Shown here one piece after another: positions 3-50,630 of a stretch of 64,000 nucleotides of DNA. The position numbers were made by a program, and so were the translations under genes. The notes under the pieces were generated by a model. The model searched no databases. It saw only the letters and a program-made list of their open reading frames with translations, and was not told where the DNA came from. Location of the stretch: positions 48,986-112,985 of the forward strand of contig CAWFFH010000008.1 of assembly GCA_963815095.1 (NCBI GenBank), read 5' to 3'. Every line of letters starts with the position of its first letter. The stretch's first letter is position 1. The DNA comes from Candidatus Bathyarchaeota archaeon (GTDB lineage Archaea; Thermoproteota; Bathyarchaeia; Bathyarchaeales; Bathycorpusculaceae).

Positions 3-386
3 CTTGGGAAAAAACATACGGGCGCTTTTACTAAAAATGTAGTTGAAGCTTTGATTAGCCAAGGTGAGCGGTGGCTTGAGGCTGGAGCCGTTCAGTTGGT
101 TGTAGAGGCGCGGGAGAGTGCGAAGGGCGTTGGGTTGTTTGATGATGAAGGGAATCTTAATGTTGGTTTCGCTGATCGTTTCGCAAATGCGTTTGGCCAC
201 AGTGTGGTCATGTTTGAAGCACCTAACAAGCCAAGTCAATTTGCTCTGTTAGATCACTTCGGTCGCCACGTTCATCTATGCAATGTTCGCCTTGAAGAGT
301 TGTTGCGGGTGGAAATTTATAGGCGAGGCCTTCACTCAGATGCTTTTAACAAAGAGAATTTGCGTCCCCATCTTCCGGTGGAATGA
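3..386 (+). CDS. comA: Phosphosulfolactate synthase, 5'-truncated by window edge
   Basis: Motifs LGKK, VVEARES.KGVGLFD, VMFEAP.K.SQ, V.L.NV and EIYRRGL match the ComA C-terminal half; directly upstream of comB. Confidence 0.85.
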   Translation, partial: LGKKHTGAFTKNVVEALISQGERWLEAGAVQLVVEARESAKGVGLFDDEGNLNVGFADRFANAFGHSVVMFEAPNKPSQFALLDHFGRHVHLCNVRLEELLRVEIYRRGLHSDAFNKENLRPHLPVE

Positions 387-411
387 AGCGGTATTAAGGA
401 GAAGAGAGGTT

Positions 412-1125
412 ATGAGCAGAAAATCAGTTGCTATAGATTGTCTAAGCGAGAGTCTATGTCATTATGATGAAAGATGTGCGGTCATAGTTATCGATGTTAT
501 TCGTTCAATAACTGTAGCATCCACGATAGTTGAATCTGGAAGAAGATGTTTTTTTGCTCCTTCGATTGAGGCGGCATTTCTTTTTGCAAAACAGTTTGAC
601 AATCCGTTGCTGATTGGTGAAATGGGCGGGAGCATGCCCTATGGTTTTGACATTAATAATAGTCCGGTGGAAATTGAAAGCCGCAAAGATATTTTGCGAC
701 CTGCAATTCTGGTTTCTTCATCGGGGATACCGCTGCTTTATTCGTTGAGAGATTGCAATTCAGTTTACGTTGCTTGTCTTCGGAATTATAGTGCAACCAT
801 CAAGCATCTCGCTGGACTTTACAATCGAGTAATAGTTCTTGGTGCCCCAACCCGGGGAGAGTTTCGTGAAGAAGATAAACTGTGTTGCGCACGGATTGCA
901 GCTGGCCTCATCAAAGCTGGATATGCTTCTGAAGATGAAAAAACCACGGAGATTGTAAATCGTTGGGCAGAAAAGCCAGTTACGGTTTGTGGTGAAGGGA
1001 AAAGTGCTGAGTATCTCCGAAGATCTGGTCAAGCAAAAGACCTTGATTTTATTCTCAGCCACGTGAACGACCTTAACTCGCCACTTAAGATTAAGAACAA
1101 TGAGATTGTTAAAACACCGGTTTAG
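412..1125 (+). CDS. comB: 2-phosphosulfolactate phosphatase
   Basis: IVIDVIRS.T, L.GE.GG..P.GFD.NNSP, SSSG, ACLRN, EED.LCC motifs; ATG at 412 after GGAG-like RBS. Confidence 0.85.
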   Translation: MSRKSVAIDCLSESLCHYDERCAVIVIDVIRSITVASTIVESGRRCFFAPSIEAAFLFAKQFDNPLLIGEMGGSMPYGFDINNSPVEIESRKDILRPAILVSSSGIPLLYSLRDCNSVYVACLRNYSATIKHLAGLYNRVIVLGAPTRGEFREEDKLCCARIAAGLIKAGYASEDEKTTEIVNRWAEKPVTVCGEGKSAEYLRRSGQAKDLDFILSHVNDLNSPLKIKNNEIVKTPV

Positions 1126-2380
1126 TCGCGGAGTGGAAAAGACGGTTAAACGTGAAAAGGTTACTGCAGAAGATACGAGCGTTCCAGTTGTCGTATTGTA
1201 CACTTACCACTATGGTCAATTAGGCGTCTTGCGTAGTTTTGGAAGGCTCGGCATTGTAGTTCATGGTGTTGATCCAAATCCGCGGTCTCCCGGTCTGTTT
1301 TCCAGATATTGTCAGAAAAAATTCTTGTTTGATATAGACGCTGCACCCTCCCGCGCTTCTGTTCAATACTTATTAGATGTTGCCAAGAAAATTGGAAAAC
1401 GTTCACTTCTGATTCACACAACCGATAGTGGTGCAGGGTGGCTTGCAGACAACGCTGAAGCTTTGAGTGAAGGATACATTTTTCCGAAGCTATCTTCTCA
1501 GCTTGTTTTAGCTCTTGCCAACAAAAAAGAGATGTATTTTCTTGCCAAAAAGTATGGTGTTCCAACTCCCGAGGCGTGCTTTCCACTTTCGCTAAGCGAT
1601 GTTGAAGAATACGTGAAGGATGCAGTTTTTCCGGTAGTTTTAAAGGAGCTTTATCGTGGAGGGTCACCCCGAGTTGGAAAAAGAATGTTCGTGGCAAAAA
1701 CGAAAGCTGAACTTCTCAAGTTTTATAGCCAATGCGAAGATTCTTCGAACCCAAATTTTATGTTACAAGAGTATATTCCAGGTGGGGATGATTCGATTTG
1801 GATGTTTAACGGTTATTTCGATGAAAAATCGGATTGCCTTTTTGGAATGACTGGACGAAAAATTCGTCAATCTCCCATTCATACTGGTGTGACCTCGCTT
1901 GGTGTTTGTTTGAAAAACCCATTAGTTGATGAAATGACGAGGCGCTTTATGAAAAGTATTGGTTACAAGGGGATTCTTGACATCGGATACAGGTACGATT
2001 TGAGAGATGGAAAGTACAAGGTTCTCGATATTAATCCTCGTATAGGTTCAACTTTTCGGCTCTTTGTAGGCGCTAATGGGTTAGATGTTGCCCGCGCCCA
2101 ATATTTAGATCTCACTGGTCAATCAGTTCCTTCAAGTGAGCTTATTGAGGGGCGAAAATGGTTTGTTGAAGACAGAGATTCTGTTTCGAGTTTTCGGTAT
2201 CACTATGAAAAAAGTCTAACCTTTAAACACTGGTTAGCATCATTTCGTGGCGTCCAAGAGAGTGCTTGGTTTGCTTGGGATGATCTTTTGCCGTTTTTCA
2301 TGATGTGCGCCAAGTCTTCAAGAAAAGTGCTTTCTAAAGCAGACAATAATGCGTTAAATCCGTACAAACTTACTCCTTAA
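1100..2380 (+). CDS. ATP-grasp carboxylate-amine ligase (D-aspartate ligase/YfcC-like)
   Basis: LANKKEMY, GVPTP, FPVVLK, MLQEYIPG, GYKGILDIGYRYD.RDGKYKVLDINPR; overlaps comB end; true start may be slightly downstream. Confidence 0.8.
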   Translation: MRLLKHRFSRGVEKTVKREKVTAEDTSVPVVVLYTYHYGQLGVLRSFGRLGIVVHGVDPNPRSPGLFSRYCQKKFLFDIDAAPSRASVQYLLDVAKKIGKRSLLIHTTDSGAGWLADNAEALSEGYIFPKLSSQLVLALANKKEMYFLAKKYGVPTPEACFPLSLSDVEEYVKDAVFPVVLKELYRGGSPRVGKRMFVAKTKAELLKFYSQCEDSSNPNFMLQEYIPGGDDSIWMFNGYFDEKSDCLFGMTGRKIRQSPIHTGVTSLGVCLKNPLVDEMTRRFMKSIGYKGILDIGYRYDLRDGKYKVLDINPRIGSTFRLFVGANGLDVARAQYLDLTGQSVPSSELIEGRKWFVEDRDSVSSFRYHYEKSLTFKHWLASFRGVQESAWFAWDDLLPFFMMCAKSSRKVLSKADNNALNPYKLTP

Positions 2381-2526
2381 ACTCTAAGGAAAACTCGCGA
2401 ATCCTTTCTAAATGCTATAATTTAAGTTCTCTGTTTTCCTAATCTCTTCTTCTTATCAATTAAAGAACAAAAGTTATAATCCTCAACTAAGAATAATCTT
2501 TAACTTCAATTTATCTGGTGATTAAA

Positions 2527-3147
2527 ATGGTATTTGCAAAAAAAGTTGTGTTGGCGGTGGGAGCCCATCCTGATGATATTGAATTAGGGTCTGGCGGGAC
2601 AATCTATAAAGCGGTGCAAGCAGGGGCGCATGTTATTGCTTTGTATATGACAAGGGGCGGAAAAATCACTGACACTAATGTAAGAATGAGAGAAAGCACT
2701 GAGGCCATGAACGTTTTGGGCGTTAATGAAGTCTTTTTTGAGAATTTCCCTGACACGGAGATTCCAGATTCATTTGAAGCCATAAACTGTTTAGAACAAT
2801 ACGCCCTCAAATACCAACCCGATATCGTGCTAACACACTCAATTAACGATATACATCAAGATCACCGAAGAGTAGCTTGGCTTGCAATGTCTTCATTTAG
2901 GAACATACCGAAAGTTCTTGCTTTTGAAACCCCTAGAGTAAGACCTGCGGCTTTCTTGCCTACTTACTTTGTAAATATAACGGGCAGTGTTGACAAGAAA
3001 TGGGAAGCCCTGCGATGCCATGTTTCTCAAAACGAGAAAAGATATCTAGCATACGAATCCACAGTTAATCTTGCTTCTTTTAGAGGGAGCCAGGTTGGTA
3101 TTGCTGCGGCAGAAGCCTTTGAAATTGTAAAATATGTAGAAGGCTAA
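2527..3147 (+). CDS. PIG-L/LmbE family N-acetylhexosamine deacetylase
   Basis: AHPDDIELG and D.HQDH metal-binding motifs, C-terminal AEAF. Confidence 0.9.
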   Translation: MVFAKKVVLAVGAHPDDIELGSGGTIYKAVQAGAHVIALYMTRGGKITDTNVRMRESTEAMNVLGVNEVFFENFPDTEIPDSFEAINCLEQYALKYQPDIVLTHSINDIHQDHRRVAWLAMSSFRNIPKVLAFETPRVRPAAFLPTYFVNITGSVDKKWEALRCHVSQNEKRYLAYESTVNLASFRGSQVGIAAAEAFEIVKYVEG

Positions 3148-3486: not shown

Positions 3487-4482
3487 TTGCAAACGAATAA
3501 GTTGAAAGTGGCAGTGGTTGGAGTAGGTAAGATGGGCTTAGTGCATGCTAGTATTTTTAACACTCTGCCCAATGTTGAACTTGTTGCATTATGTGATAAG
3601 AGTACTTTGATACGTAAATTCTGTAGTAAACTATTGTCTGGAGTTCATATAGTGGATGATATAACGAAAATATCTGACTTAGACATTGACATAGTTTGTG
3701 TAACTACCCCCATTCCTTCTCATTACTCAATTATCAACAGCTTCTGTTCCACCAAAAAGGCACCAAATATGTTTGTTGAGAAAACCCTTTCTTCTTCCTA
3801 TTCAGATTCTGCAAAACTGTGCGAATTGGTTCGGAATTCAGTAAGCGTTAACATGGTTGGTTATATGAAGAGGTTCGCCGTTACGTTCATAAAAGCTAAA
3901 GAACTGTTAGAACAAGGTGCTATAGGATCTACGTATTCTTTCGAAGCACATGCTTATTCATCAGATTTTTTTGGCCTAAAAAATAATCCTTCACATGTGA
4001 CGTCGAGCCGGGGAGGCGTTCTTAGTGATTTGGGTTCACATGTTATTGATCTTAGTTTATGGTTTTTCGGAGATTTACAGGTTCAAACCGACCAGATCGA
4101 TGCAAATGATATTCAAAACGCAGTAAAGTTTAAAGTCGCAAGCGGTGCCTCTGTTGATGGAATTTTTGATGTATCTTGGTGCAAGGAAGGTTATCATGTG
4201 CCAGAATTTGGGTTATTAATCACCGGTTCTAAGGGTAAAATAGAGGTCGATGATGATGTAGTTGAGTTGTCGCCCGCTTCAGGACAATCAATCCGTTGGC
4301 ATAGACATGACCTTAATGATAATGTAGGTTTCTTACTCGGTGCTCCGGAATATTTCCGAGAAGATGATTATTTTGTTAAATCAATTTTGAATGGCGCTAC
4401 TGCTGAACCTAGTTTTGCTACCGCTTCAAAAGTTGATTATGTAATCGAAAAGGTATTTGATGGAGCTAAAAAAAATGAGTAG
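3487..4482 (+). CDS. Gfo/Idh/MocA family oxidoreductase
   Basis: VAVVGVGKMG Rossmann motif, EK motif, GGVLSDLGSHVIDL. Confidence 0.9.
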   Translation: MQTNKLKVAVVGVGKMGLVHASIFNTLPNVELVALCDKSTLIRKFCSKLLSGVHIVDDITKISDLDIDIVCVTTPIPSHYSIINSFCSTKKAPNMFVEKTLSSSYSDSAKLCELVRNSVSVNMVGYMKRFAVTFIKAKELLEQGAIGSTYSFEAHAYSSDFFGLKNNPSHVTSSRGGVLSDLGSHVIDLSLWFFGDLQVQTDQIDANDIQNAVKFKVASGASVDGIFDVSWCKEGYHVPEFGLLITGSKGKIEVDDDVVELSPASGQSIRWHRHDLNDNVGFLLGAPEYFREDDYFVKSILNGATAEPSFATASKVDYVIEKVFDGAKKNE

Positions 4483-5368
4483 GAAACAACCGATTTTGCT
4501 GGTCGGGGACAATCCATTTCATGGTATTAGCCATCTTTCTCAACAAAATGTTAAAAATAGAGGAACTGACGTTACCAGGGCAAAATACGCTTCTGACATT
4601 GTTAAAACCTCAATCGAAAATGGCGCCAATGGATTCATGTTTTCAGTAAGCGAAACAACTCTCTCAATACTAAATATGCTCCCTGAAAAGGAGCCGAAAA
4701 AACGGCTGCATCTTTATGCACTTGTCCCTTATGCTTACGAATATGTTAGACTGGCCACTCATGAAGGGGGTCTTCCAGGATTGGCAAAGCGCTTTGCTAA
4801 AGAGGTATTGCGATCGGGAAATTTGAAAACTGTTGGTGTTGGATTAAAGGGTGTCTTGACGTCTGATCCAATTGATGTTATGAAAGCCTATCTTTCATAT
4901 GAAATTATTAGAGTTAAAGCTTCTGCAAAGAATCGAGGTGTTTTGCGTTCTGTTTTGCTTCACGAAGTAATTACTGATATGGCTATAGCTCTCAATCTTG
5001 AAAGCTTGGTTAAGTCCTACATTAAGTTTATGAATGACCATGGAATAGAACCTGGATTTGAGACGCGCAATTTTTCCTATCTTGTGAAGAAGTTTAAAGA
5101 ATGGGATATAGATTTTAAGGGAATAGTTCTGGCAGCTCCGTTTAACAAAATAGGTTTCTACATGAACCCTTCTAAGGATGAGTGTGAAAAGTCGCTTGCC
5201 GATGTTTCTGGGGGCACTGTGATTATGATGAGTATTCTGGCGGCAGGTTACTTGAAACCCAAAGAGGCTATAGATTACGTTCTTGGGCTTCCAAATGCTA
5301 ATGCAGTTGTTGTAGGCGTATCTAATGAGAAGCAGGCGCGTGAAACATTCAGTCTTCTTGGAACCTGA
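4475..5368 (+). CDS. Conserved hypothetical protein (possible TIM-barrel/aldo-keto-reductase-like), coupled to the oxidoreductase
   Basis: Intact 297-aa ORF overlapping the upstream stop; GDNPFHGISH, PFNKIGF.MNP, MSILAAGYL motifs. Confidence 0.6.
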   Translation: MSRKQPILLVGDNPFHGISHLSQQNVKNRGTDVTRAKYASDIVKTSIENGANGFMFSVSETTLSILNMLPEKEPKKRLHLYALVPYAYEYVRLATHEGGLPGLAKRFAKEVLRSGNLKTVGVGLKGVLTSDPIDVMKAYLSYEIIRVKASAKNRGVLRSVLLHEVITDMAIALNLESLVKSYIKFMNDHGIEPGFETRNFSYLVKKFKEWDIDFKGIVLAAPFNKIGFYMNPSKDECEKSLADVSGGTVIMMSILAAGYLKPKEAIDYVLGLPNANAVVVGVSNEKQARETFSLLGT

Positions 5369-5457: not shown

Positions 5458-6684
5458 ATGACCTCTATTACTCTTTGCATGCTTGCTCCAGAATTTATTC
5501 CTGTCTGGGGCGGAACAGGATCATATACTGTTGAATTGGTTAAGTCTCTCCCAAGCACTATGGATATTCATGTAGTTACACTGAAGCGTGACGTAGGTCT
5601 CTCCGCAAGAAACTCTTCTATCGATAATAATGTAGATGCAATAGTGAAAAGGTCTCTCAAAGTCCATTATTTGACCAAGTCTAGTGAGACATTTTTCTAT
5701 AATCTTCCTTTTCAACTTGCTTGTACCGCAAAAATTCCGGTACTTCACAAGAAGTTCGGCTTTGACATTATGCATTCGCATATGTGTCAGATGCCTGATG
5801 TATATTTAAAACTGCTAAATCAGCTGAAAATTCCGACTGTTGTTACTATTCATGGAACGATTCAAATGCTAAGAGATCATGCGATAATTGCACGCGATTT
5901 GTTTCATGATTTGGAATCTGGTGAGAAATCTATTCTGCGTTTCTATCCAGTAATTAGTCAACTACAACAATTATACGTAAAAAGGGTATCCCGGTTTATT
6001 GCAGTTTCCAAAAAAACTAAGGAGTTAGCTGTGGAACATTTTGGCGTTGACCCGAGCAAAATTAGTTTAGTATACAATGGTGTTGATGTTAATCTATTTC
6101 GAATGCCTGATGAATCTGAACTTCTCAACAGGTATTCAAGCCCAAAAATTGTATACGTTGGGCGAATCATTTCCAAAAAAGGTATAGATATCCTCATCAA
6201 AGCGATGCCTGAGACTTTGAAATCTTTTCCACATGCCTGTTTTGTATTTGTTGGAGGCGGTAACATTTCCCTCTACAAAGAAATGATAAAAAATAAAGGC
6301 ATATCTGAGAAAAACTATCTGTTTACAGGTCATATGGGTTATCTCGAACGAGCAAAAATATTCCGTGAAGCAACAGTATTTGTAAATCCTTCTTTTTTTG
6401 AGAACTGTTCCATTAGCATTCTTGAAGCAATGAGCAGCGGTTGTGCAGTCGTAGCAAGTAATGTAGGTGGCAATCCAGAGCTTATCCAATCTGGAAAGAA
6501 TGGTTTATTGGTACGTGCATTTGATGATAAAGAGTTTGCAAGAGCGATAATTTCACTTCTAAAAGATGAGCATCTGAATAGAATAATTGGAGAGGAAGCA
6601 AGAAAAACCGTCGAAAGATCTTTTTCATCAACAAAATGTGCAAAAGACACATATGAAGTCTATAGACAAACCCTTGATTCATGA
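5458..6684 (+). CDS. GT4 glycosyltransferase
   Basis: PVWGG, YNGVD, VGRI...KG, ENCSISILEAM (EX7E). Confidence 0.9.
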   Translation: MTSITLCMLAPEFIPVWGGTGSYTVELVKSLPSTMDIHVVTLKRDVGLSARNSSIDNNVDAIVKRSLKVHYLTKSSETFFYNLPFQLACTAKIPVLHKKFGFDIMHSHMCQMPDVYLKLLNQLKIPTVVTIHGTIQMLRDHAIIARDLFHDLESGEKSILRFYPVISQLQQLYVKRVSRFIAVSKKTKELAVEHFGVDPSKISLVYNGVDVNLFRMPDESELLNRYSSPKIVYVGRIISKKGIDILIKAMPETLKSFPHACFVFVGGGNISLYKEMIKNKGISEKNYLFTGHMGYLERAKIFREATVFVNPSFFENCSISILEAMSSGCAVVASNVGGNPELIQSGKNGLLVRAFDDKEFARAIISLLKDEHLNRIIGEEARKTVERSFSSTKCAKDTYEVYRQTLDS

Positions 6685-6772
6685 TTTAAAAGTAATACAA
6701 TAGAAATACTTTCGAAATTTGTCAATTTTGTAACAAAAACTCCGTAACATCCTGTAATTAGAATCCAATTAT

Positions 6773-7786
6773 GTGAGTAAATTAGTTATGGCTGAAAACA
6801 ATAGCAATTCTCTTGAAACTCCAGCCATAAGCGTCATTGTGGCAACGAGGGGCGACAAGTTAGATTTCTTGAAAAACTGTCTTTTGTCACTTAAAAATCA
6901 GAAGTTCAGAAACTTTGAAATTATTGTAGTTTCAAAAAGGTTTCCAAAAGAACTAGAAGATTTGTTTGAAACCGAGAATATCAGATTTATTGAGGAAAAA
7001 GGATCGACATTAGGCGCCGCCAGAAATTTAGGGGTTATAAACGCTAAAGGCGAACTGGTTTCATTCATTGATGATGATGCAGAAGCCTCGGTTGACTGGC
7101 TTGGAAAAATATCTAAAACTTTTTCATCTTTCCCTTCATTGACTTCCTTAGGCGGACCACACTTTACACTCCAAGAAAAAACCAAAAAAAGTCCTTTAAA
7201 TTATTTTGAAGGTTTGTTTTTTGAAGGTAATTCCCAAGTAACATATTTTGATAAATCAGCAATTGGGAAGATAGCTGGCTGCAATGTGACGTACAAGAAG
7301 TCTGTCTTTCTAGAAACGGGCTGTTTGAACGAGCAATTGCGAACTTGTGAAGATTGGGATTTTAATAGACGGCTAGTTGAAAAAGGATACAGTTTACGTT
7401 ATGATCCAGAAATTTGGGTTTTGCATCGTAGACAGGGCCTAAAGCATGCCTTCCAAGGCAGTTCAAGAAGTGCGCCGTTTTTCTTGTCAAGGAAGACTCT
7501 TAAACTTGCAAGATACGAATCAATGATTGCCTACTTCTATGTAACGAATTTTCTTTTTATTTTGCTTCTTGTTATTCTGATCATTTCGCCATTGTTTTTT
7601 GTCTTGTTTTTCCTTACAATTTTAGGTGGATATATAATATTTAATGCAGTGAGAACACATACTTATAACCGTAAAATTTTGTATTTTCCGTTAGTAATTT
7701 TATTTACAGGCGCGAGAATATTAGGTTTCTATTTTGGCTTGATCAAGTATGTGGCCTCAAAATTGCGTACTTCTTTTAAGCGATGA
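6773..7786 (+). CDS. GT2 glycosyltransferase with C-terminal TM helices
   Basis: SVIVAT, AARNLG, FIDDD, EDWDF; hydrophobic C-terminus. Confidence 0.9.
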   Translation: MSKLVMAENNSNSLETPAISVIVATRGDKLDFLKNCLLSLKNQKFRNFEIIVVSKRFPKELEDLFETENIRFIEEKGSTLGAARNLGVINAKGELVSFIDDDAEASVDWLGKISKTFSSFPSLTSLGGPHFTLQEKTKKSPLNYFEGLFFEGNSQVTYFDKSAIGKIAGCNVTYKKSVFLETGCLNEQLRTCEDWDFNRRLVEKGYSLRYDPEIWVLHRRQGLKHAFQGSSRSAPFFLSRKTLKLARYESMIAYFYVTNFLFILLLVILIISPLFFVLFFLTILGGYIIFNAVRTHTYNRKILYFPLVILFTGARILGFYFGLIKYVASKLRTSFKR

Positions 7787-7902
7787 TCTTCCCACAAATA
7801 AAATTTTTCTTCAAATCGATAGTAAAAATTTCCAAGAGTTCTATTAATTAAAGAAATCCGACCAACGTTAATTTCTCCTTAAACTACATTAGTTGATCTC
7901 AC

Positions 7903-9030
7903 ATGCACGTTTGTATGATTTCACGAGAATTTCCTCCTGTGACAGGTGGAATAGGCTATTTTGTTTATAATCTCTCAAAAGGGCTAGTCAAAAGGGGTCA
8001 TAACGTTTCGATTATTACTCGTGGATCTACTGGTAAAGTCGAGAAAAAATTGATAGACGGAATTAATGTATATAAAGCTACTTTCTTTCCGTTATATCCT
8101 TTTCATATGGCGTTGCATGGGTTCTTTGTTAATTCTCTTCTTAATTCTTTAAGTCCTGAGGTAAGCTTAGTTCATTTACACTCACCTTTAACTCCAAAAG
8201 TTAAGACTTCTTTACCGGTAGTTATGACTGTTCATACCGCTATGAGGATTGACTCGAGGTATCATGAGGTAGTAGATCCTTACTCATTGGCGGAAAAAGT
8301 GCAATCGATGTATTTTTCGCCCCTTCTTGAATCTCAACTGTTAAGAATTTCAGATATAGTGACTGCTGTTTCTCCTTCCGTTGCTAATGAATTGACCGAA
8401 TACGGAATAGATTCCAGTAAAGTTAAAGTAATGTGGAATGGTGTTAATGAAAAATCTTTTCCAACCAATAAAAATGAGAAATTGGAAAAATATGTATTGT
8501 ACACTGGTGTATTGCGTGCTCGAAAAGGGCTTTTTGATTTAATTAAATGTGCAATCATAGTAAGTAAAATAATACCTGATGCAAAATTTGTTATTTGTGG
8601 TACCGGTCCTCTTCTTCAAAAGTTAAAGGAACAAGTTAAGAGCGCTGGGCTTGAACAGAAAGTAGTTTTCTTAGGTCGCGTAGATAGAAAGAAACTCATT
8701 AAAATATATCAAGGTGCTACGATATATGTTGTGTCTTCTATTTATGAAGGTCTTCCAACAGTTATTCTAGAAGCGATGGCTTGCGGTTTACCAGTTGTAG
8801 CCACTGATATAGGAGGCAATCGCGACTTGATTTCTTCTAATGTAAATGGGCTATTAGTTCCCCCCAGATCTCCTGAGATAATGGCACAAATGATAATGGA
8901 ATTGTGGAATGATGAAAAATTGAGGAAGAAACTCGGCGATTGTGCTAGGAAAACTATTATGAAAAAGTACACATGGGATATGATAACTGACAATTTCATA
9001 AACGTTTACGAGTCCCTTCTCAAAAAATGA
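7903..9030 (+). CDS. GT4 glycosyltransferase
   Basis: EFPP..GG, NGV, RKG, EGLPTVILEAM. Confidence 0.9.
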   Translation: MHVCMISREFPPVTGGIGYFVYNLSKGLVKRGHNVSIITRGSTGKVEKKLIDGINVYKATFFPLYPFHMALHGFFVNSLLNSLSPEVSLVHLHSPLTPKVKTSLPVVMTVHTAMRIDSRYHEVVDPYSLAEKVQSMYFSPLLESQLLRISDIVTAVSPSVANELTEYGIDSSKVKVMWNGVNEKSFPTNKNEKLEKYVLYTGVLRARKGLFDLIKCAIIVSKIIPDAKFVICGTGPLLQKLKEQVKSAGLEQKVVFLGRVDRKKLIKIYQGATIYVVSSIYEGLPTVILEAMACGLPVVATDIGGNRDLISSNVNGLLVPPRSPEIMAQMIMELWNDEKLRKKLGDCARKTIMKKYTWDMITDNFINVYESLLKK

Positions 9031-9124: not shown

Positions 9125-9735
9125 ATGATTAAATCCAAAGAAGATTACGCATTCTATTTTGGCCCAGATCGACTTGCTCTAACTATAAAGCATAAGCGTC
9201 CACGGATATTTCAAGATGAAATTTGGAAATTTGAACGTTTACTTCGAAAAGTCGAATATTTAGAAAACTGTGGAAATAATCGTTTAGATGCGATTATTCG
9301 TTTGCAGGCAAAATATAGCCTTCAAAAGTTAAGTACACAATTTGGGTTTGCGATACCACGTAACGTGTTTGGGCCGGGCTGCAATTGCGCATGGAGGTCC
9401 CATAATAGTGCATTCAAAAGCCTTGGTAGGTGAAAATTGCAGGATTGATCGGTGCGTTTCTAGGTAGTATTCATTACCCTGCAGCTGCCCCCCAGATTGG
9501 TGATAATGTGTTTATTGGACCCGGTGCGGTTATAGATGGTGATATTGAAATTGCAGCTGGAATAGCAATTGGAGCAAATTCGTATGTTAATAAATCTTTT
9601 AGAGAACCCGATATTACAATTGCAGGTTGTCCAGCACGCAAGATATCCGATAAAGGTTCGCGCGAATGTTGGTTTCGATCTACTGAAATTTTGCGAAAGT
9701 TACGTTCAGAAGGTCAAATTAATAAGTTTAAATAA
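9125..9735 (+). CDS. Serine-acetyltransferase-like hexapeptide O-acyltransferase (frameshifted)
   Basis: GFAIPRNVFGPG, AHGGPIIVH, GENCRI, PQIGDNVFIGPGA, IGANSYV, GCPAR spread over three frames; breaks near 9380 and 9460. Confidence 0.75.
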
Positions 9736-9973
9736 TTGCTTTGTTCGTAAAAGATTTGATGTATCTTTGCCCAGGTAAACATCAAATAATAATTGCAGAT
9801 ATCTAAAAACTATTAAATCAACTGTAAATTTATGTAATACATTATGTTGTCCCTCATTGAGAATGTTGGCGATTTTGTCCGCTTTTGAATTTTTGTTTAA
9901 CAAAAAGAAACTAGTTACTATTAATACATATCGTTTATATTGAGGGTTAAGATATGAGATGCAAGTGTGTTGA

Positions 9974-11248
9974 ATGGCCAAAAAGCTATCGCTTGCATTG
10001 TGCATTTGTTTGATGGTCTGCTATTCATTTAATATGTATTATACTGAGGCGTCAGCTCAACTCAATCAACAATATCCTCTTTCGGAATTGTTTCGATCAC
10101 CTCCGCTCCAACTTCTTTTATTTTTGGAAATTCAATAATCGGCACAAATCTCGGGCAAAACGATGCTAACGCTCAATCTATCTCGTACTTCACATGCACT
10201 GCAACGGGATCAATTACTGACATAATAGCATATCAATGGAGTGTCATCAGGCAGTGCGATAGCAGCATTATATGCAGTTAGCGGAGGGTCAGCAGGAGTT
10301 TTACTGGTACAACCCATCCCCTAAACGTAAGCACCGATTTTTCATGGAAAGACTTCCAACTACAAACACCGTATACTGTAACATCAGGCACGACCTACGG
10401 ACTCGCAATAATGGGCAACATTGCCCTAAACATTATGGAGGGTGCAACAGGTCAACGAGACCACAATGCTGTCAGTTCCTACGTAAATGGCTTCAAAAAT
10501 CCTTTCGGAACCATATGGGGAACCGATAACAGTGGCGCTATGAGCATTTATGCAATAGGCGCTACTTTGTCTCCGACTCCAACGCCTACTTTGTCTCCGA
10601 CTCCAACGCCTACTTTGTCGCCGATTCCAACGTCCAAACCATCTTCGGTAAACCTGGAACCTCTTAGCGCTTTCACCGAACAAGCCACTGATTACAGTTA
10701 CTCACACGTTGACTACTCGGTTACTCATAATGGGAATCCGAGCATTTACACTTCTTTGCCATCTATTCCTTTAGTGGTCGTGCCAACGGTGAAATTGATG
10801 GTGCTTGGGTTTTAGTTAATCCCGGGGACCATATAGATTTTGGATGTTGGATTTATGCACCAGACGATGCGCCTTATATTCGTGATCCAGCCTATTCAGG
10901 GGCAAGAACAGGCGTTGACTTCTATGTTTCCAGCGGATCAGCTAATTTAGGCATTGGGATTCCTTATTACAATGCTATTCATGCTGGAGGGCATCCTGAT
11001 AATTACGTGGGTGAACCAACCGCTCGGATGTGAATATTCAGTTTGGTACTGCTGGGTGGCAATATGTAGAGTGGGACTTCTACATTCCAACCGACACATT
11101 CACTTTGATGTATGGAGGAAATCCATGGGCGTTGCATACTATTCCTTCAACGCAAATCCAAAGTATTGTGCCTTGGTTAGACCTTTCAAATTATGATGAT
11201 GCTTGCCATGCATGGTTCTTAGAGCCAACTTTATACATCAATCCATAA
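9974..11248 (+). CDS. Secreted two-domain protein with Pro/Thr linker and CBM-like C-terminal domain (several frameshifts)
   Basis: Signal peptide MAKKLSLALCICLMVC, TLSPTPTP linker, C-terminal domain homologous to 41961-42533. Confidence 0.65.
10562..10633 (+). repeat. 3 x 24-bp tandem repeat encoding TLSPTPTP
   Basis: ctactttgtctccgactccaacgc twice exactly, third copy slightly degenerate. Confidence 0.9.
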
Positions 11249-18669: not shown

Positions 18670-19848
18670 TTGTTTATGCGTATATGTCATATTTGGCAAA
18701 ACTTCATACCAATTGAGTTTGGAGGAGTAGAGCGTTACATACTGAGCTTGTCAGACTTTCTGTCCAATCAAGATCAAAACATGAATTTTCTCATGATTAC
18801 TGACAAAGCCGCTTACGTTCCTTTTTCCCGCGCGATTCGAACATCCAGCTGTCAAAGAATTAACAGTCTCGAAGTACATCGACTGGGACCTAACCTTTCC
18901 AGTTTTCTAAGAAGTTCGTCTTACAAACTTCTTGGTCGACAGTCAAACCTTTTGGACAAAATGTTGATTGCGAGCCTATTTAGAGAAGCTCCACCATAAA
19001 AGGTATTGATAAGGTAGATGTTTTTCATGTGCATGGATTTTGGCAGCCACTTTATCCTACAATAGGGCTTCTTTTAAGTCAACATTTCCATCGCCCCTTA
19101 TGATTACTCTTCATGGTGATTCAGTAAACCCAAACGATCGTTTCGCAATGCCCATAAGAGCTTCAGCAACGCTTGACGTGCTTAGACGAGCTGATGTGAT
19201 TACAACATATTCAGAGGAGACTCTCAATGTGTTGAAAGAACTTGATCTGGGTAAAACAAGTCGGTTAATACCTAATTTTGTAAATACGAAATTATTCAAA
19301 CGTCCAACTTTAATGGAAACGGTTCAGGAAATCGAATAGTGATGGTGACGAGGTTTAGTAAACCCAAGGATCCAATGACTCCAATTCGAGCTTTTGCTAA
19401 AGTTATAAAGGAAATACCTGAGGCAACTTTCACAATTGTGGGGTACGGTCCACTTTATGAAGATGCAAATCGTTTGGTTCAAGATTTGAATCTTGGAAAG
19501 TCGATCACAATGATTGGCATGAAATCAGATGTGAGAAAGTTTTTGTGGAATAGTGATATATCTATTGGAACAAGGGGTAGCTACATAACTACACTAGAAG
19601 CTTGGGCAGCTGGTCTCCCAGTTATTGCTCCAGATTTTGGAATCATGAAGGAAATAATTTCTAACGGTAAAAATGGCTTATTAACTCCCCCTGGCGATGC
19701 CGATCAGTTAGCGTCTGCAATAATAAATCTAATAAGAAACAAAGACCTTCGAGCAATGATCGTAGCAAACGGTATAGAAGCTGTGAAAAAACATGATATT
19801 CAAAAAGTTTCATCTTCCATAGCTGATATTTACAAATCGTTGCTGTAA
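18670..19848 (+). CDS. GT4 glycosyltransferase (frameshifted)
   Basis: PIEFGGVE, TLHG, IPNFV, TRFSKPK, LEAWAAGLPV. Confidence 0.8.
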
Positions 19849-19913: not shown

Positions 19914-21049
19914 TTGAACTTGGTGTATAAGCAATCTTTAGAGGCAAAATGTAGGTGGAAAGATAAGTTGCTTATTCAAGAAAATACTCCTCTCGTGTCA
20001 GTTATTATTTTAAATTTCAACGGAGAAAACTATTTAGAGAAGTGTCTTTTTTCCGTTTTAGAAACAAAATACCCAAATTTTGAAGTAATTTTCGTAGATA
20101 ATGCATCCACAGATTCGAGCTTGAAAGTGGTTGAAAAAAACTTTGGAAATGACAAACGACTACGAATTTTCAAAAGCAGCGAAAATCTTGGTTTTAGCGC
20201 TGGCAATAATTTTGGTTTTAGACATGCGAGAGGACACTATATTGTTTTTCTAAACAATGATACAATCGCGGATCCTTATTGGCTTGATGCTTTGGTCAGT
20301 ACTATGGAAAAAGATAAAACAATTGGATTAGCTGGAAGTACAATACTATCAATTGATGGGAAGAAACTTCGAGGAGCTGGCGGGCTTTGGAGCGATTATC
20401 TTTTGTTCTTGTGGCCGGTAGGAGCAGGAAAAGAGGCGATTTTAAGTTTATTCCCACTTTTGAAGTTTCGTTTGCCACAGGTTGCTCATTGATAGCCCGA
20501 AAGGAATTTCTCAATGAAATAGGATTATTTGATCCAGATATACCTTACAATTATGACGATACTTTGTTATCAGTGAAAACGTGGCTTGCAGGCAAACGAG
20601 TTGTATCAGTGTCGGGTTCAAGAATATGCCACATTGGCGGAGCCACCACAAAGAAATTTTGGAATAGCCAATCAGTGACTTTCTCTCTTCTTAGAGCCAA
20701 AATGTGTTTGTTATTTGATGTATACTTCAATTTCAAGGATTTAATAAAAGCTTTATTTATTCTTTATTTTTCACTTGCGGTTGAATCGGGTTTTTTTGTG
20801 ATAGCCAAAAATCCTTCAGAAATACTGGGAAGTATTCGCGCTTCCACTTGGCTATTGAAAAATTTTAAACACGTATGGACGAATCGGCTGAACCATTGGA
20901 GCAACCCAAAAATCTCTCCTGAAATGTTAGTTGCAAAAGTAATTCGAATAAAGCTTCCATTTCCACTTTGCGTTGCACATTCTAAACTAACATATTCATT
21001 TTATCGTAATGAATGCTTGAAATACGAAAAAACTCTTTTTTCCAATTAA
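19914..21049 (+). CDS. GT2 glycosyltransferase (frameshifted)
   Basis: SVIILNFNG, VDNASTD, NLGFSAGNN, FLNND, YDDT; start may be ~19968. Confidence 0.85.
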
Positions 21050-22179: not shown

Positions 22180-23380
22180 TTCTTTGTTGTTCGATAAAAC
22201 AATTGTAAACTCACTTCGTTACAACGCGCGTGTCCGTCCAGGAAGTGCGCTTAGCTCAAGACTTGAGAGACTATCTTCGTGACACTTCGCGTAACGGTAT
22301 TTCGAAATTGATACCAAAGATGCTCATACAATTAGGGTTTCGAATGTCCTAAAGATTGGAGGTGGGTTTTGGAGTGATGTATTCTCCATATCTCTTACTT
22401 ATATGGACGGAACACCCTCAACACCGTAATCTTGTCTTGAAAACTTATCTCGTGAACATCGATCCTGTGATGAAAGCATATATTCATGATGAAGACCTTA
22501 GGAAATGTGTAAGAGAATTTCAGGCTCTAAAAAGTCTTAAGAGAATTGGTTTTCCTGTCCCAGAAGTATACCTTTGTGAGTGTGATTCCCGTTTTCTTGG
22601 TTACCCTTTCGTAATAATGCAGAAAGAAGAAGTGACTCAAAAAAGCATCAATGAGATAGTGGATAGCTTTGCCTCAACACTCGCAAATCTTCATAATCTC
22701 AAAGTGGCCGACTAGGAATAGCTGTTCTTAGAACTCCTAAAGACGGATATGCATTTGCGAGACGTTGGCCAATTCATTTCAAGCACTATTTGAATCTTGA
22801 AACCAAACATCCCAAAAGACTTAAAAAAGATTTTAATCTGGCAGTTCAATGGCTTAATTCAAATGTGCCGAACAACTATTGTCCACAATATTGTTTAGCT
22901 CACGGGGATTACCATCCAGGTAACGTTTGTGTAACCAAGGATTCAAGGATGATTGTATTAGACTGGGACTCAATTGAAATTGGCGACCCAGCTTACGATG
23001 TTGGTTATGCTTATCACTTTGTTAAATTTTTCAGTAACCCCAAAAATCCAAATTCTGCTCAGAGAACTGCCGAACGATTTGTTTCAGAATACAATAAGAA
23101 TTTCGAAGGAGACATTAGCCAGAGACTTGAATATTACAAAATGGTTGGACTCTTAGGGACATCCATTTACTACAGTTCGGGATTATCAAATCCCGTTTAC
23201 GCCTACAAATATCATCGACGCAAAGTTTTACCTACATTTCCTTTTCTCAGTGGGCTATTCATTCTACTCGGATTTCCATTTATTCGATGGCCCTCTGTTG
23301 CTCGGCAATTGGCATCTGAAGGGGATCTTCTTTGGTTAAAATATTATGAAAATTATCTTGAAGAAGCGTTAAAACAATAG
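22106..23380 (+). CDS. Aminoglycoside/choline phosphotransferase (APH) family kinase 1 (frameshifted)
   Basis: LVLK, REFQAL...GFPVP, GYPFVIM, HGDYHPGN, DWD...GDPAYD; start approximate. Confidence 0.75.
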
Positions 23381-30194: not shown

Positions 30195-31352
30195 TTGTTA
30201 GATCCAATTCCTTTATACAAGCCTCAAAATACCATAGGCGCAGAGGTACTAGATTCAATTCGAGAAGTCCTTGAGTCTGGGTGGCTGACCATGGGTCCAA
30301 AAACAATAAAGTTTGAAGAGGTCTTTGCAAAGTATATATCATGTAAATATGGGGTAGCCACTGATTCTTGTACTTCTGCCTTGTACCTGGCTTTGGATGG
30401 CTTAGGAATAAAAAAAGGCAACTCTGTCGTGGTTCCAGTAAATACTTTCGTCGCAACCGCAAATGTAGTTAGGTGGTTAGGGGCTGAAGTCCGCTTCTGC
30501 GACGTAGGAAAAGACGGCGAACTTGATCCAGCAAAATTAGCAACCCAACTCGAACAAGATGATAAAATCAAATGTGTTATCCCCGTTCACCTATACGGTT
30601 TTCCCTGCGATATGAAACAGATCGGTCAATTAGTCAAGAAACATGACTTAGGAATGATAGAGGACTGCGCTCAGTCTGTCGGTGCAACGTTCGGAGATAA
30701 GAAAGTTGGCAGTTTTGGAGATGCAGGTTGTTATAGTTTTTACGCTACAAAAAATATAACAACTGGGGAAGGAGGGATGCTTGTCACAAGTAGCGAAAAA
30801 ATTAAAGACAGAGCTCTCCTAATAAGAAATCATGGTCAAAGCAAGACTCCAAAGGAAAAGTTCGCTCACTGGCGTTACGACGTTACTGATTTAGGCTTCA
30901 ATTTTAGGATGAGCGAAATTGCGGCTGTAATTGGACTTAAACAAATGGAAAAACTTGACCTTATCATTGAATCAAGACGGAAAATAGCAAAAAGGTATAA
31001 AGAAGAGTTAGAAAAAATCGACGGCATCGAAATGCTCCATGATCCAGAATCTCACATCTATCGACAAGGCGTTTTCCATCTGCTAGAAGTCAAGGTTGAA
31101 AAACAATACCCTCTGAAAAGAGACAAACTTTATGATTTTCTAAAAAAAGAAGGGATAACAACCGGAGTTCACTATCCTCCTCTACACATGTTTTCTTACT
31201 ACAAAAAGACCACAAAATATCGAAAAGGAGATTTTCCGCAAGCAGAAGCATTGTATTCAAAGATTCTTTCACTTCCAATGTTTCCATTTATGACGGAGCT
31301 TGAATTTCAGACAGTAATTAACGCTTTAAAGGCAGGAGCTCACGCAACCTGA
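30195..31352 (+). CDS. DegT/DnrJ/EryC1/StrS sugar aminotransferase
   Basis: SCTSAL, TFVAT, PVHLYG, EDCAQ, SFYATKNITTGEGG, GFNFRM. Confidence 0.95.
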   Translation: MLDPIPLYKPQNTIGAEVLDSIREVLESGWLTMGPKTIKFEEVFAKYISCKYGVATDSCTSALYLALDGLGIKKGNSVVVPVNTFVATANVVRWLGAEVRFCDVGKDGELDPAKLATQLEQDDKIKCVIPVHLYGFPCDMKQIGQLVKKHDLGMIEDCAQSVGATFGDKKVGSFGDAGCYSFYATKNITTGEGGMLVTSSEKIKDRALLIRNHGQSKTPKEKFAHWRYDVTDLGFNFRMSEIAAVIGLKQMEKLDLIIESRRKIAKRYKEELEKIDGIEMLHDPESHIYRQGVFHLLEVKVEKQYPLKRDKLYDFLKKEGITTGVHYPPLHMFSYYKKTTKYRKGDFPQAEALYSKILSLPMFPFMTELEFQTVINALKAGAHAT

Positions 31353-32829: not shown

Positions 32830-33937
32830 TTGTTGGACTCAAAAAAGCTCGAAGACTATTTGCGTGTAAAATCGAATTATGAGGATTCTAGCATAATCCC
32901 TAAAGATGCTACTAACGTCAAGGTTTCTAACATTAGAACGCTTTCAGGAGGCATGACGAATAACACTTGTTCTTTCTTGCTTACATTTTCCCAGAAAGGA
33001 TTTGAGCAACGTTTTGATCTTGTCATGAAAGCTTATTCTGAGAAGGTTGGTTTATGGTCTAAGATTCATCATGCAGACGAAGATATTAGACCATATGTAA
33101 GAGAATTTGAAGCTCTGAGAAGTCTTGAGAGGGCAGGTTTTCCTGTACCACATGCCTATCTTTGTGAATACGATTCATCTTTTTTTGGCTATCCGTTTTT
33201 AATAATGCAAAAGGAAAAAATAATCCAACAAAGCGTTTTCCCGATGGATCGTTTTGCTGCAACACTCGCAAGTCTCCATAATTTGAAGTGAAGGAGTTAG
33301 AGATTAAGTCTCTCAGCTTCCCTAGTGATAGTGGTTCATTCGCCAGAGAACGGCAAATTTGTTTGAAGCAATATCTAAATGAAACTAGACATTATCGGGC
33401 TCTAAAAAAACATTTCAATTATGCAATAAACTGGCTTGAGTCAAATGTTTCCAATAATAATTGTCCTCAATATTGCTTAATTCATGGTGAATACCACCCT
33501 GGTCATGGTTTACTGACAAAAGATAATGTCTTGAAAGTAATAGATTGGGAAAGTGTCCAGATAGGCGATCCCGCGTTTGACGTCGGATATGCATATCACA
33601 TGCTTAAACTGATGTACGACCACAAAAATTTAAACTCAGGTGAAGGAGTTGCTGAACGTTTTGTCTCAGAATACAGCAAAAATTTCAAAGGCGATGTACA
33701 CTCTCGGCTTGAATTCTATAAGTTGGTCGGACTTTTAGGAGTGGCTGTTGTAGTTAGCTCATGGATATCAAACCCGTTGGAGGCGTACAAAAGTTTTGGG
33801 ACAAATCTTTTGCACGTGCGCTTGCATTTCCTTTTTTTCACTCTCAATTTTTTGCAAAGAGTTGGCTAAATTAAGATTTCTTAGTTTCCTATTTACAATA
33901 CAGCCAAGATTACATTAAAACAGCTTTGAGACGATAA
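32830..33937 (+). CDS. APH family kinase 3 (frameshifted; atypical catalytic loop)
   Basis: SGGMTN, REFEAL, GFPVP, HGEYHPGH, DWE...GDPAFD; start may be ~32745. Confidence 0.75.
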
Positions 33938-34005
33938 ATAAAGGTAGCTTGCTCCAATCAACTTATAAAGAAACAGGACTAAACAACGTAAATGGTCGAT
34001 TCTTA

Positions 34006-35152
34006 ATGGTTCGTCAAGAAGAGGTCAGAGTTTTTCAAACTGTAGATGACATCAAAGAGTCGATTGATCAAATTTCGAACGATAGTTTCTTTACATATGG
34101 ATGGTTTAAGACTTTAGAATCCTTTGGAATGCTTCCTGAACCGCTTTACTTAACTGCGAGTTATGAAGGGTCAACAATAGCGATCGCACCTTGCTTCATA
34201 GACAAGATTAACGACTTCTTCAGTTGGGGACCAAATATATTGCCTTATCTTCATGGACTCTTGAATGTTAGTCAAAGACTTGGATTATACAAAAGAAACG
34301 TATTATTGTGTTATTCACCAGCTTGTTGTCGTACTAAAATTTTATTTGACGACAACCATAAAGACAAAACAATTCTAAATTTGTTTTCCAAAAAAATCGA
34401 TGATATTTGCAAGGAACAGAAAATTTTGTTCAGCTCATTTCTTTTTGTTTCAGAATTCGACGAACTTTTAATGAAAAATCTTGAAAGTCTAAATTACACG
34501 AAATTTCCTAATATCGTTACTTTTTATCTTGATGTCAACTGGTCAAATTTCGAGGACTATTTGAACAGCCTGAAACCTGGAATGAGAAAAAAAATTAGAC
34601 GTGAGATCAAAAAATGCTCGGAAAATGGTGTGACTATTAAAGAAGAAACAATAACTGAAAATATTGCAGAAAAACTTTCAGAGCTTGGGGCAAATGTTAC
34701 TTCAAAATACAATCCTACAAGCAATAATAAACTCCCCTTCTTTTTTCTTAACACTGCAGAAATATGCAAAGGATAAAATAAGGTTGTTTGTGGCTAGAAA
34801 GAACGATGAAGTTGTTGGTTTTTCCCTTTCGCTGCAACACAAAGATGTACTTGACGTGTACATGTATGGTTCTGATTATGCAGCTCAGACAAATACATTT
34901 TTCACTTATTTCAATCTTGCTTATTACAAACCAATTCAATTAGCAATCGATGAGAAGATAAAGAAAATATATTTTAGATATCTTAACAAAAAAGTAAGGT
35001 TAGATCGTGGCTGCAGACCTGAACAAACCTACTCATTTATTAAATGTCACAATGTATTCCTTCGGCCTTTTATGAATGCTCTGTTAAAAAGCAGACTTTA
35101 CTATAAATTAAAATCACGTTTTCTTCCCGATTATTTCAAAAGAGATCAGTAG
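34006..35152 (+). CDS. FemAB-like GNAT protein (frameshift ~34730)
   Basis: FFTYGWFKTLE, WSNFEDYL.SL...RKKIRRE, FTYFNLAYY.PIQ.AI, RGC.PE. Confidence 0.75.
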
Positions 35153-38510: not shown

Positions 38511-39637
38511 TTGAGAATGACAAGAAATCCTTCTAGAGTGTTAGGCAACCAGCAAAAACCCATAGGGCAAAAAGGTGTTTCAATCGTAAGTGTGCGTCCA
38601 GCCTCCATTTCGGAATGGGATCTGATTTGGCATGAATGTGAATATTCAACATATTTCCACTCTAGGGAATGGGCTGAAATATGGAGCAAATACACAAATA
38701 GAAAGATGTTCTTAAGCCCTTTTCTTGTTTCGTTCTCAGATGGCAAAAAAGCTTTACTGCCTTTTTCATGCAGAAAAAACGAAGGATTAACACCAATTTT
38801 AACTGGCTCAACTAGACTGTACATCTCCTCCCCTGAGTGCACTTACGGCGGTTGGATCTCTGCAAATGAACTAGGCACTAATCATGCGATCTTGTTGTTA
38901 AATTTGATAAAAAAGAAATTTAACAATTTGTCTTGGAGGTTAAACCCTTATGATTATACCGCTTTAAATTCAGGAGTTTCTATCACCGATGAGGGTGAAA
39001 CTCATGCAATTAACTTGGAAGAAGGATTTGACGTGATTGCATCAAACATGTCTAAGGGTCATAGAAGTGCTGTGAAACAGGCAATTCGAAGTGGGGTTTC
39101 AGTAAGACGTTCTTCCTCAATTGAGGATTGGTTAAATTATTATCGGGTTTACGAAACCTCTGTTGACAGATGGGGGAATCGGTTGCTAGGTGAGAAATAT
39201 TCCTGGGAACTCTTCCGCGACTTCTTTGCAAGGAATTCGCCGAATGTCGAACTTTGGTTAGCTATTTATCAAGATGCTGTTATTTCAGGGGCACTTTGTT
39301 TTCACTCAAAAAGACATTTTGTTTATTGGCATGGTGCATCAACAGATACTTACTTCACTCTTAGACCAGTGAATCTTCTTTTGTACGAAGTCATTAAGAA
39401 TGCATGCGAAAGAAAGTTTACTTGGTTTGATTTCAATCCAAGCGCTGGGCTTAAAGGGGTAATTGCGTTTAAAGAAAGATTTGGGCACAAGCTTTGAAAT
39501 GTCCTATTGTTAGGTTGAAGCCTAAGAATATGCGCACAGTTGCTATAGCGACAATTGGAGGCAAAATTGGTGAAATCAAAAAGCGAACAAAGTTTGCTTT
39601 GCCCACGCCATTTTTAAAAATCATCTTCAACGACTAA
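38511..39637 (+). CDS. FemAB/FemX-like GNAT protein (frameshift ~39485)
   Basis: STYFHSREW, YGG, YWHGAS, PVNLL, FDFNPS.GL.GV..FKERFG. Confidence 0.75.
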
Positions 39638-49387: not shown

Positions 49388-49427
49388 TTGGTAGTTGCAC
49401 CGCTAGCTGATGCTTTTTCAGGATCGT

Positions 49428-50600: not shown

Positions 50601-50630
50601 TTAGTAATCAAGCCCCATTGTGTTAACATG

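Follow-up and report, generated by a model that had tools for sequence, protein, structure and literature searches.

In methanogens, the enzymes ComA and ComB open the pathway to coenzyme M: phosphoenolpyruvate (PEP) and sulfite are converted to phosphosulfolactate, and phosphosulfolactate to sulfolactate. Here, we discuss genes of these two families in a member of the Bathyarchaeia, where they stand beside a gene for an ATP-grasp ligase at the head of an island of glycan genes. The host genome is a metagenome-assembled genome (MAG) of 2.69 Mb in 9 contigs, 98.45% complete. The DNA under study, which we refer to as “the window”, is a 64,000-nucleotide (nt) stretch of it (G000:C8:48986-112985), and the nearest public relatives of the genome are likewise Bathyarchaeia MAGs. 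We describe the genes, how widely their arrangement is conserved, and the pathway that they may encode.

Genes at the locus

Four genes follow one another on the + strand of the window, i.e., comA, comB, the gene for the ATP-grasp ligase, and a gene for a PIG-L/LmbE-family deacetylase. The first is cut by the edge of the window. The part inside (3..386) encodes the C-terminal 127 amino acids (aa) of a ComA-family phosphosulfolactate synthase and matches the Pfam family PF02679 with 81.8 bits for the fragment; the full gene, of 277 aa, begins 448 nt before the window (L001:11553-12386, equivalent to G000:C8:48538-49371) and scores 166.8 bits, well over the gathering score of 25.2. Compared with proteins of solved structure, residues 38-267 of ComA align to residues 20-250 of the Methanocaldococcus jannaschii enzyme (121 bits over ~230 residues), with a far weaker match to the Bacillus subtilis structure 1u83 (52.8 bits). 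It is the only ComA-family gene in the host genome.

The second gene, comB, encodes a protein of the 2-phosphosulfolactate phosphatase family (412..1125), which scores 105 bits against PF04029 (gathering score 26.4) and matches ComB-family structures at an E value of 1e-11. Its longest open reading frame (ORF) begins at 283. The ATG at 412, which sits behind a GGAG-rich stretch and leaves a gap of 25 nt to the end of comA, is the likely start. The third gene (1100..2380) encodes an ATP-grasp carboxylate-amine ligase that passes the cut-off for PF02786 (25.1 bits versus 19.8). The original prediction, made from the DNA of the window alone, had the end of comB overlapping the ligase gene. This holds if the ligase starts at the ATG at 1100, which gives an overlap of 26 nt; it does not hold for the alternative GTG at 1133, which lies 7 nt past the comB stop codon and fits the length of most homologues (411–415 aa). 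An AT-rich spacer of 137 nt separates the ligase from the fourth gene (2518..3147), whose product is predicted to be an N-acetylhexosamine deacetylase. It scores 93.2 bits against PF02585 (gathering score 28.2), and its translation contains AHPDD and HQDH, which we take to be metal-binding motifs.

Further downstream on the same strand are three glycosyltransferase genes, of families GT4 (5458-6684), GT2 (6773-7786), and GT4 (7903-9030), identified with the Pfam models Glycos_transf_1, Glyco_transf_4, and Glycos_transf_2. This run (5458..9030) is the head of the glycan island. The four genes, with glycosyltransferases after them, lie where the original prediction had placed them. On the other side, just upstream of comA and outside the window, a class-I methyltransferase gene lies on the other strand (L001:10551-11408), and the cassette is preceded on its 5' side by typical archaeal genes, namely those for GatD/GatE, an Sm/LSM protein, and Rio2. 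The comA-comB-ligase trio has a GC content of 43.3%, which is ordinary for the genome (mean 41.7%, standard deviation 3%) and therefore gives no sign of recent foreign origin. Among the sequencing runs listed as containing this DNA, 12 are of DNA, with small shares (≤0.19), and none is of RNA.

Conservation of the ComA-ComB-ligase unit

The arrangement was compared across 80 genome loci centered on ligase homologues that are 45–97% identical. These loci span Bathyarchaeia, Ignavibacteriota, Bacteroidota, Chlorobiota, Acidobacteriota, Chloroflexota, Actinomycetota, Gemmatimonadota, Pseudomonadota, Calditrichota, and one Methanomicrobiales MAG. By tblastn, ComA was found near the ligase in 66 of the 80 and ComB in 67, with both present in 64. 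Neither Com gene was found in 11 loci, and three of these (L060, L068, and L082) had <3 kb of upstream sequence. The three genes are colinear in the order ComA-ComB-ligase in 43 loci, in the order ligase-ComA-ComB in 11, and divergent in 8, with a median span of 2.8 kb. The arrangement is far beyond chance, and the linkage suspected from the window is conserved well outside it: the cassette occurs in Bathyarchaeia and at least eight bacterial phyla, mainly in non-methanogenic soil bacteria.

A search in the opposite direction, from ComA, upheld the link. A ComA-family match was present in 15 of 201 Bathyarchaeia genomes, and only one of these 15 loci (L097, with a ComA 64% identical to that of the host) has ComB and the ligase alongside. 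In 12 others, ComA is 24–31% identical and stands alone within 1.5-kb flanks; the remaining two gave no tblastn match. The 14 ligase-free loci (L083-L096), in whose 1.5-kb flanks neither ComB nor the ligase was seen, mostly score higher on the Pfam ComA model than the cassette type, at 208–298 bits.

Absence of a coenzyme M pathway

Since ComA and ComB open the methanogen pathway, and since a Methanomicrobiales MAG is the source of one related locus, a full or relict pathway to coenzyme M has to be considered. Searches of the host genome detected no McrA (PF02249), no sulfopyruvate decarboxylase (TIGR03845), and no member of the ComC family (Ldh_2, PF02615), with positive controls in every search. 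Given the completeness of the genome, these negatives exclude coenzyme M use, and the spread of the cassette, mostly through non-methanogenic soil bacteria, points the same way; we regard a role in coenzyme M synthesis as highly improbable. The original prediction had noted that comC and comDE are missing from the window and had concluded that the genes do not serve coenzyme M. The first statement now extends to the whole genome, and the second stands with it.

The ATP-grasp ligase

The ligase belongs to a large family. Among 8,000 candidates scored, 3,845 are homologues at E ≤ 0.001, many of which carry the automatic JGI label “D-aspartate ligase”. An alignment of 52 sequences has a mean column identity of 47%, and many of its arginines are invariant or nearly so. 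The structure predicted by AlphaFold2 is of high confidence (predicted local distance difference test score 91.7, predicted template modeling [TM] score 0.89) and has the three-domain ATP-grasp fold. Foldseek matches it best to biotin carboxylase, PurK, PylC, two L-amino-acid ligases (RizA and BL00235), and PurT, with TM scores of 0.5–0.6 and 11–18% identity; the probability is 1.00 for biotin carboxylase, PurK, PylC, RizA, and PurT. A profile built from the 52 sequences retrieved remote ATP-grasp matches only from the sequences of the PDB (best E value 5e-7). Together, the model and the profile support assignment of the protein to the carboxylate-amine, or carboxylate-activating, class of ATP-grasp enzymes. 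The family is uncharacterized and widely conserved, and we propose that the cassette ligase is a sulfolactate-activating enzyme.

In a quick phylogenetic tree with a paralogue outgroup, for which branch support was calculated solely by the Shimodaira-Hasegawa-like approximate likelihood ratio test, the Bathyarchaeia ligases are nested, together with one Methanomicrobiales sequence, in a clade of Ignavibacteriota, Bacteroidota, and Chlorobiota (support 95). The tree suggests transfer between domains, in one direction or the other.

Glycan genes around the cassette

The surroundings of the ligase, out to 6 kb, were scored by BLAST against a panel that covers 13 classes of glycan genes. At least one glycan-type gene was found in 53 of the 80 loci, at least two in 40, and at least three in 26; the ComA-ComB-ligase unit is thus usually located among polysaccharide genes. 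The clearest cases are in Acidobacteriota, where at least nine loci share the order NusG-like protein, priming sugar transferase (Bac_transf), in some a methyltransferase, ComA, ComB, and ligase. On the 3' side of this trio are a multi-pass flippase-like protein and an APH-like kinase, and then an FkbM methyltransferase, a GT4 glycosyltransferase, or Wzy_C. In a Calditrichota locus (L062), genes for a GFO-type oxidoreductase and a DegT aminotransferase lie directly 5' of comA, with a methyltransferase, a FemAB-like protein, a further DegT protein, and a glycosyltransferase on the 3' side. Two other loci (L042 and L078) contain CE4 deacetylases, sulfotransferases, GT2, and GT4.

Gene fusions place the ligase in similar company. 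In L037 and L043, a FemAB-like domain precedes the ligase in a single fused protein, and in L069 a CE4 polysaccharide deacetylase is fused behind it, in one frame with no intervening stop codon. Two more loci (L020 and L038) have a ligase-methyltransferase fusion. In L023, where the DNA is 71% GC, an apparent read-through ORF from the ligase to ComA was left out of this count.

The deacetylase and the source of the amine

The PIG-L gene is the sole member of its family in the host genome, and the nearest solved structures are archaeal diacetylchitobiose deacetylases. It lies 3' of the ligase in 9 of the 10 Bathyarchaeia loci, even where the other downstream genes differ (L006, L009, and L025), and in none of the 70 others. 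The expectation that comA, comB, the ligase, and LmbE would recur as a set of four in other glycan loci therefore failed outside the Bathyarchaeia. In 10 bacterial loci, a CE4 deacetylase, which is unrelated to PIG-L, is located within 6 kb of the ligase. That two unrelated deacetylase families occur near the ligase is indirect support for an amine that is freed and then re-acylated.

Within the family to which the host belongs, 9 of 40 other genomes have PIG-L family genes. Two copies, 58% and 65% identical to that of the host, have no ligase in their 1.5-kb flanks. In one relative, a distant PIG-L gene (30% identical) is followed by a GFO gene (52%) and then by a gene for a 303-aa protein (60%), again with no ligase in 1.5-kb flanks. 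The same two genes follow PIG-L in the window. The GFO/IDH/MocA oxidoreductase (3487..4482, + strand; PF01408 and PF22725) is a possible sugar 3-dehydrogenase of an amino-sugar route; its match to the NCBIfam UDP-N-acetylglucosamine (UDP-GlcNAc) 3-dehydrogenase is weak (76 bits versus a cut-off of 450). The conserved 303-aa protein (4457..5368, + strand) overlaps the end of the GFO gene. It has no Pfam or NCBIfam match, and an Atlas search returned clusters of “hypothetical protein” alone; its gene is paired with GFO in five Bathyarchaeia loci and in one relative where the ligase was not found. Because relatives of these genes occur without the ligase, PIG-L, GFO, and the 303-aa gene seem to be part of the resident glycan machinery, with the cassette as a neighbor. 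A second candidate source of the acceptor amine is possible in the same island, namely a DegT/PseC-like sugar aminotransferase (30195..31352, + strand; PF01041, 389 bits) that scores 361 bits against TIGR03588 (PseC), under the cut-off of 423.5.

A GT4 glycosyltransferase, a PIG-L deacetylase, and a ligase in one neighborhood also recall the synthesis of low-molecular-weight thiols. In bacillithiol synthesis, BshA glycosylates malate with GlcNAc, and sulfolactate is the sulfonate analogue of malate. By analogy, GT4 could add GlcNAc to the 2-hydroxyl of sulfolactate, PIG-L could remove the acetyl group, and the ligase could add an amino acid such as cysteine, giving a sulfonated thiol or solute. 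The best NCBIfam match of PIG-L is indeed BshB1 (92.6 bits), both GT4 proteins match BshA and MshA (102–116 bits), and the deacetylase-ligase fusion would fit this order of steps equally well. However, all of these scores are under the equivalog cut-offs (92.6 versus 182.5 for BshB1; 101.9 and 115.6 versus 273.7 for BshA). Moreover, no glycosyltransferase family is conserved beside ComB, whereas the ligase is; PIG-L is absent from all loci sampled outside the Bathyarchaeia; and the cassette sits in Wzx/Wzy-type operons. We consider such a thiol-like route improbable.

Accessory enzymes

Flanking ORFs were clustered with a filter on GC content at third codon positions and 70% mutual coverage. 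A fourth member of the unit encodes a Methyltransf_11 protein of ~290 aa, which lies beside the trio in 27 loci by clustering or 31 by the BLAST panel. It is present, and consistently divergent from comA, in 9 of the 10 Bathyarchaeia loci; the sequence of the remaining one (L004) is truncated upstream. The FemAB-like family is represented in 12 of the 80 loci. Its presence there and in the island may indicate that the same glycan also receives aminoacyl groups.

A LarA-like gene occurs in seven of the 80 loci (e.g., L012:2936-4318 and L066:1818-3197). Its product is closest to the nickel-dependent malate racemases of NCBIfam (174 bits, under the cut-off of 500), and on this similarity it is a candidate sulfolactate racemase. 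Because its nearest relatives act on malate, which sulfolactate resembles, it points to a free sulfolactate intermediate.

A second ATP-grasp protein, similar to cyanophycin synthetase, is encoded next to the cassette in seven loci, mostly of Gemmatimonadota (the seven include L027:7151-8386, L035:3081-4289, and L042:3194-4408); in L027, this gene lies beside a PGA_cap capsule gene. Sulfotransferase genes flank cassettes in Actinomycetota (L066:4864-5874 and 7294-8151; L078:6521-7426 and 9697-10602), where the glycans may bear sulfonates as well as sulfate esters.

A proposed pathway

We consider it moderately probable that the cassette tailors glycans, i.e., that it makes sulfolactate from PEP and sulfite and that this acid is joined through an amide bond to an amino sugar in a surface glycan. 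The first two steps would follow the established activities of their families: ComA would add sulfite to PEP to give phosphosulfolactate, and ComB would remove the phosphate to release sulfolactate. In some lineages, a LarA-like enzyme may then racemize the product. The ATP-grasp ligase would activate sulfolactate by turning its carboxylate into an acyl phosphate, and would couple the acid to a free amine, most likely that of an amino sugar in a surface-glycan precursor. The class-I methyltransferase probably methylates the acid or the product, and 2-O-methylation is our guess. In the host, the neighboring PIG-L deacetylase might free the acceptor amine, or the GFO oxidoreductase and the DegT aminotransferase might build it. 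The product would be a surface glycan with a carbon-bonded sulfonate that is still charged at low pH. A broader version of this proposal, which we put forward tentatively and at slightly less than even expectation, is that a horizontally mobile cassette of four genes (methyltransferase, ComA, ComB, and ligase) places sulfolactyl groups, perhaps O-methylated, on surface polysaccharides and glycoproteins. On this view, the cassette is at home in many bacteria of soil and peat and has passed from them to the Bathyarchaeia.

Observations that weigh against the pathway, and alternatives

Several observations weigh against this pathway. First, ComA and ComB both fall under the equivalog cut-offs of NCBIfam (170.1 bits versus 280 for TIGR03849 in the case of ComA; 73.7 bits at best versus 235 in the case of ComB). 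Second, no ATP sulfurylase (PF01747) and no member of the PAPS-reductase family (PF01507) was detected in the host genome, with PF01507 found in 14 of 14 controls; as no sulfate-assimilation genes were found, the source of sulfite is unexplained. These facts would be accommodated if the ComA-like subfamily used a nucleophile other than sulfite, or another substrate altogether, such that the acid ligated is not sulfolactate, and so would the low identity of the host ComA to the 12 aligned ComA-family proteins of other Bathyarchaeia, with two more giving no match. We judge this explanation to be a little less probable still than the thiol-like route. The match of ComA to the biochemically defined M. 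jannaschii enzyme extends over nearly the whole protein and is much stronger than that to 1u83; a ComB-family phosphatase accompanies ComA in nearly every locus that has ComA; and the sulfotransferases that flank the Actinomycetota cassettes fit a sulfur theme. Furthermore, methanogens, too, use ComA with no sulfite source that we know of.

Third, the ligase fold matches are all to generic ATP-grasp enzymes at low identity, and they name neither the acid nor the amine. The ligase is 45–60% identical across phyla while the nearby sugar genes differ, and this conservation suggests one common acceptor, possibly a small metabolite, instead of a variety of sugars. The ligase might, for example, join sulfolactate to a common soluble amine, such as an amino acid or a polyamine, to make a sulfonated osmolyte, cofactor, or signal, with the glycan genes as mere neighbors in islands of variable content. 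A single universal acceptor would account for the strong conservation of the ligase. No panel glycan gene was found within 6 kb in 27 of the 80 loci; in L020, the cassette lies amid housekeeping genes, between truB and infB/nusA; in L045, it is beside an EamA transporter; and ABC transporters flank several Chloroflexota loci. On the other side, Pfam re-examination of 14 of the 27 panel-negative loci revealed envelope-polymer genes in four, i.e., a flippase in L055, Wzy_C in L030, CapD-like and FemAB-like proteins in L038, and LCP and ABC-2 transporter proteins in L048. Panel-positive ORFs make up 149 of 774 around the ligase and 64 of 2,418 (2.6%) in the host genome, where 22 of the 64 are inside the window, although the panel was drawn from the same 80 loci and the base-rate control is one genome. 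In Acidobacteriota, the cassette lies inside an operon, between the priming transferase and the flippase/Wzy genes, and the ligase fusions that involve FemAB-like proteins or a polysaccharide deacetylase are likewise at odds with a soluble product. A soluble conjugate is, in our estimate, unlikely, and is the most probable of the alternatives that we discuss.

Lastly, the proposed tailoring of a glycan has to be reconciled with the patchy occurrence of the genes. A ComA-family gene is missing from all 27 further genomes that were sampled from the family of the host, 11 of which belong to its genus, so the cassette is accessory in this lineage. The ligase was not found in four relatives (98–100% complete) whose PIG-L proteins are 37–65% or 30% identical to that of the host, in a search in which the positive control worked. 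PIG-L relatives in ligase-free genomes imply that PIG-L is not dedicated to the cassette.

Other features of the island

The island extends to ~52 kb and contains, besides the genes discussed above, more glycosyltransferases, APH-like kinases, methyltransferases, and at least five FemAB-like genes. The latter (Acetyltransf_6 or FemAB_like) lie at 33949-35152, 38511-39497, and 48287-51776, and three form a tandem array on the minus strand. Between 9000 and 35200, many glycan genes are broken into adjacent or overlapping ORFs, and the sulfolactate genes are intact. Examples of split ORFs are those of a GT4 protein (19040-19339 and 19339-19848), a GT2 protein (19914-20492 and 20387-21049), and a FemAB_like protein (33949-34776 and 34664-35152), along with APH-like fragments (22790-23380 and 33288-33869). 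The breaks are either indel errors of long-read assembly or signs of decaying genes. At 42530-43666, 45924-48134, and 53240-55498, the island encodes large proteins that are predicted to be at the surface and contain F5/8 type C, InlB B-repeat-like, and Ig/PKD-like domains; they are possible glycosylation targets or S-layer components.

Relation to known systems

The cassette has parts in common with several known systems. In coenzyme M synthesis, the first two steps are carried out by the same families (PF02679 and PF04029), with sulfolactate as the expected product in both cases; here, by contrast, an ATP-grasp ligase and a methyltransferase accompany the two in glycan loci, and ComC, ComDE, and Mcr were not found. 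Sulfolactate is also made outside methanogenesis, since YitD and YitC of B. subtilis, which belong to the ComA and ComB families, produce the sulfolactate of spores. For the ligase, a close analogy is Aslfm of Enterococcus faecium, an ATP-grasp D-aspartate ligase that places an acidic acid onto the amine of a UDP-linked cell-wall precursor. Both are carboxylate-amine ligases of the ATP-grasp type that would join a small anionic acid to an amine on an envelope precursor. However, in the profile searches the cassette ligase matched no NCBIfam or Pfam model for Aslfm, and its partner in the cassette is a sulfolactate pathway rather than an aspartate racemase.

Bacillithiol and mycothiol synthesis share with the host locus the grouping of GT4, PIG-L, and ligase and the logic by which the freed amine of glucosamine is then acylated. 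They differ in the ligase, which here is an ATP-grasp enzyme and unlike BshC or MshC; in the setting, here a large island of polysaccharide genes; and in the scores, which are sub-cut-off. The N-acyl tailoring of bacterial glycans offers another parallel: an ATP-grasp amidoligase domain is known from the Campylobacter jejuni capsule, and di-O-methylglyceroyl groups are known on pseudaminic acid. There, as proposed here, a hydroxy acid derived from a glycolytic phospho-intermediate is dephosphorylated, O-methylated, and amide-linked in a glycan locus; unlike those acids, the acid of the cassette would bear a C-sulfonate.

The original prediction noted no known description of a sulfolactyl modification of this kind. 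We likewise found neither a sulfolactyl glycan substituent nor the word “sulfolactyl” in the searchable literature, whose coverage does not include subscription journals. Nor did we find relevant literature linking phosphosulfolactate with Bathyarchaeota or with glycosyltransferases, or sulfolactate with ATP-grasp enzymes. A SAR11 paper (PMC11796062) concerns a transporter island that is not relevant to the cassette, and passages of a second paper (PMC6018796) deal with sulfolactate degradation only.

Implications

As far as we have searched, a carbon-bonded sulfonate on an acyl side group of a glycan is new and, if the proposal is true, would be a new class of substituent. Sulfate esters on microbial glycans are already known. 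A sulfonate group of this kind stays charged at very low pH and resists sulfatases, properties that would matter in acidic peat and soil, from which these genomes come. The cassette offers a role for a large unnamed family of ATP-grasp proteins, and because it is compact, occurs in many bacterial phyla and one archaeal class, and encodes enzymes that can be expressed, the idea is directly testable. For the interpretation of metagenomes, the presence of ComA and ComB should not be taken to indicate coenzyme M or methanogenesis. A large part of the organic sulfur in soil is carbon-bonded, and the microbial sources of this fraction are poorly defined. If the proposal is true, the cassette would be a previously unrecognized biological source of the large sulfonate-sulfur pool of soil.

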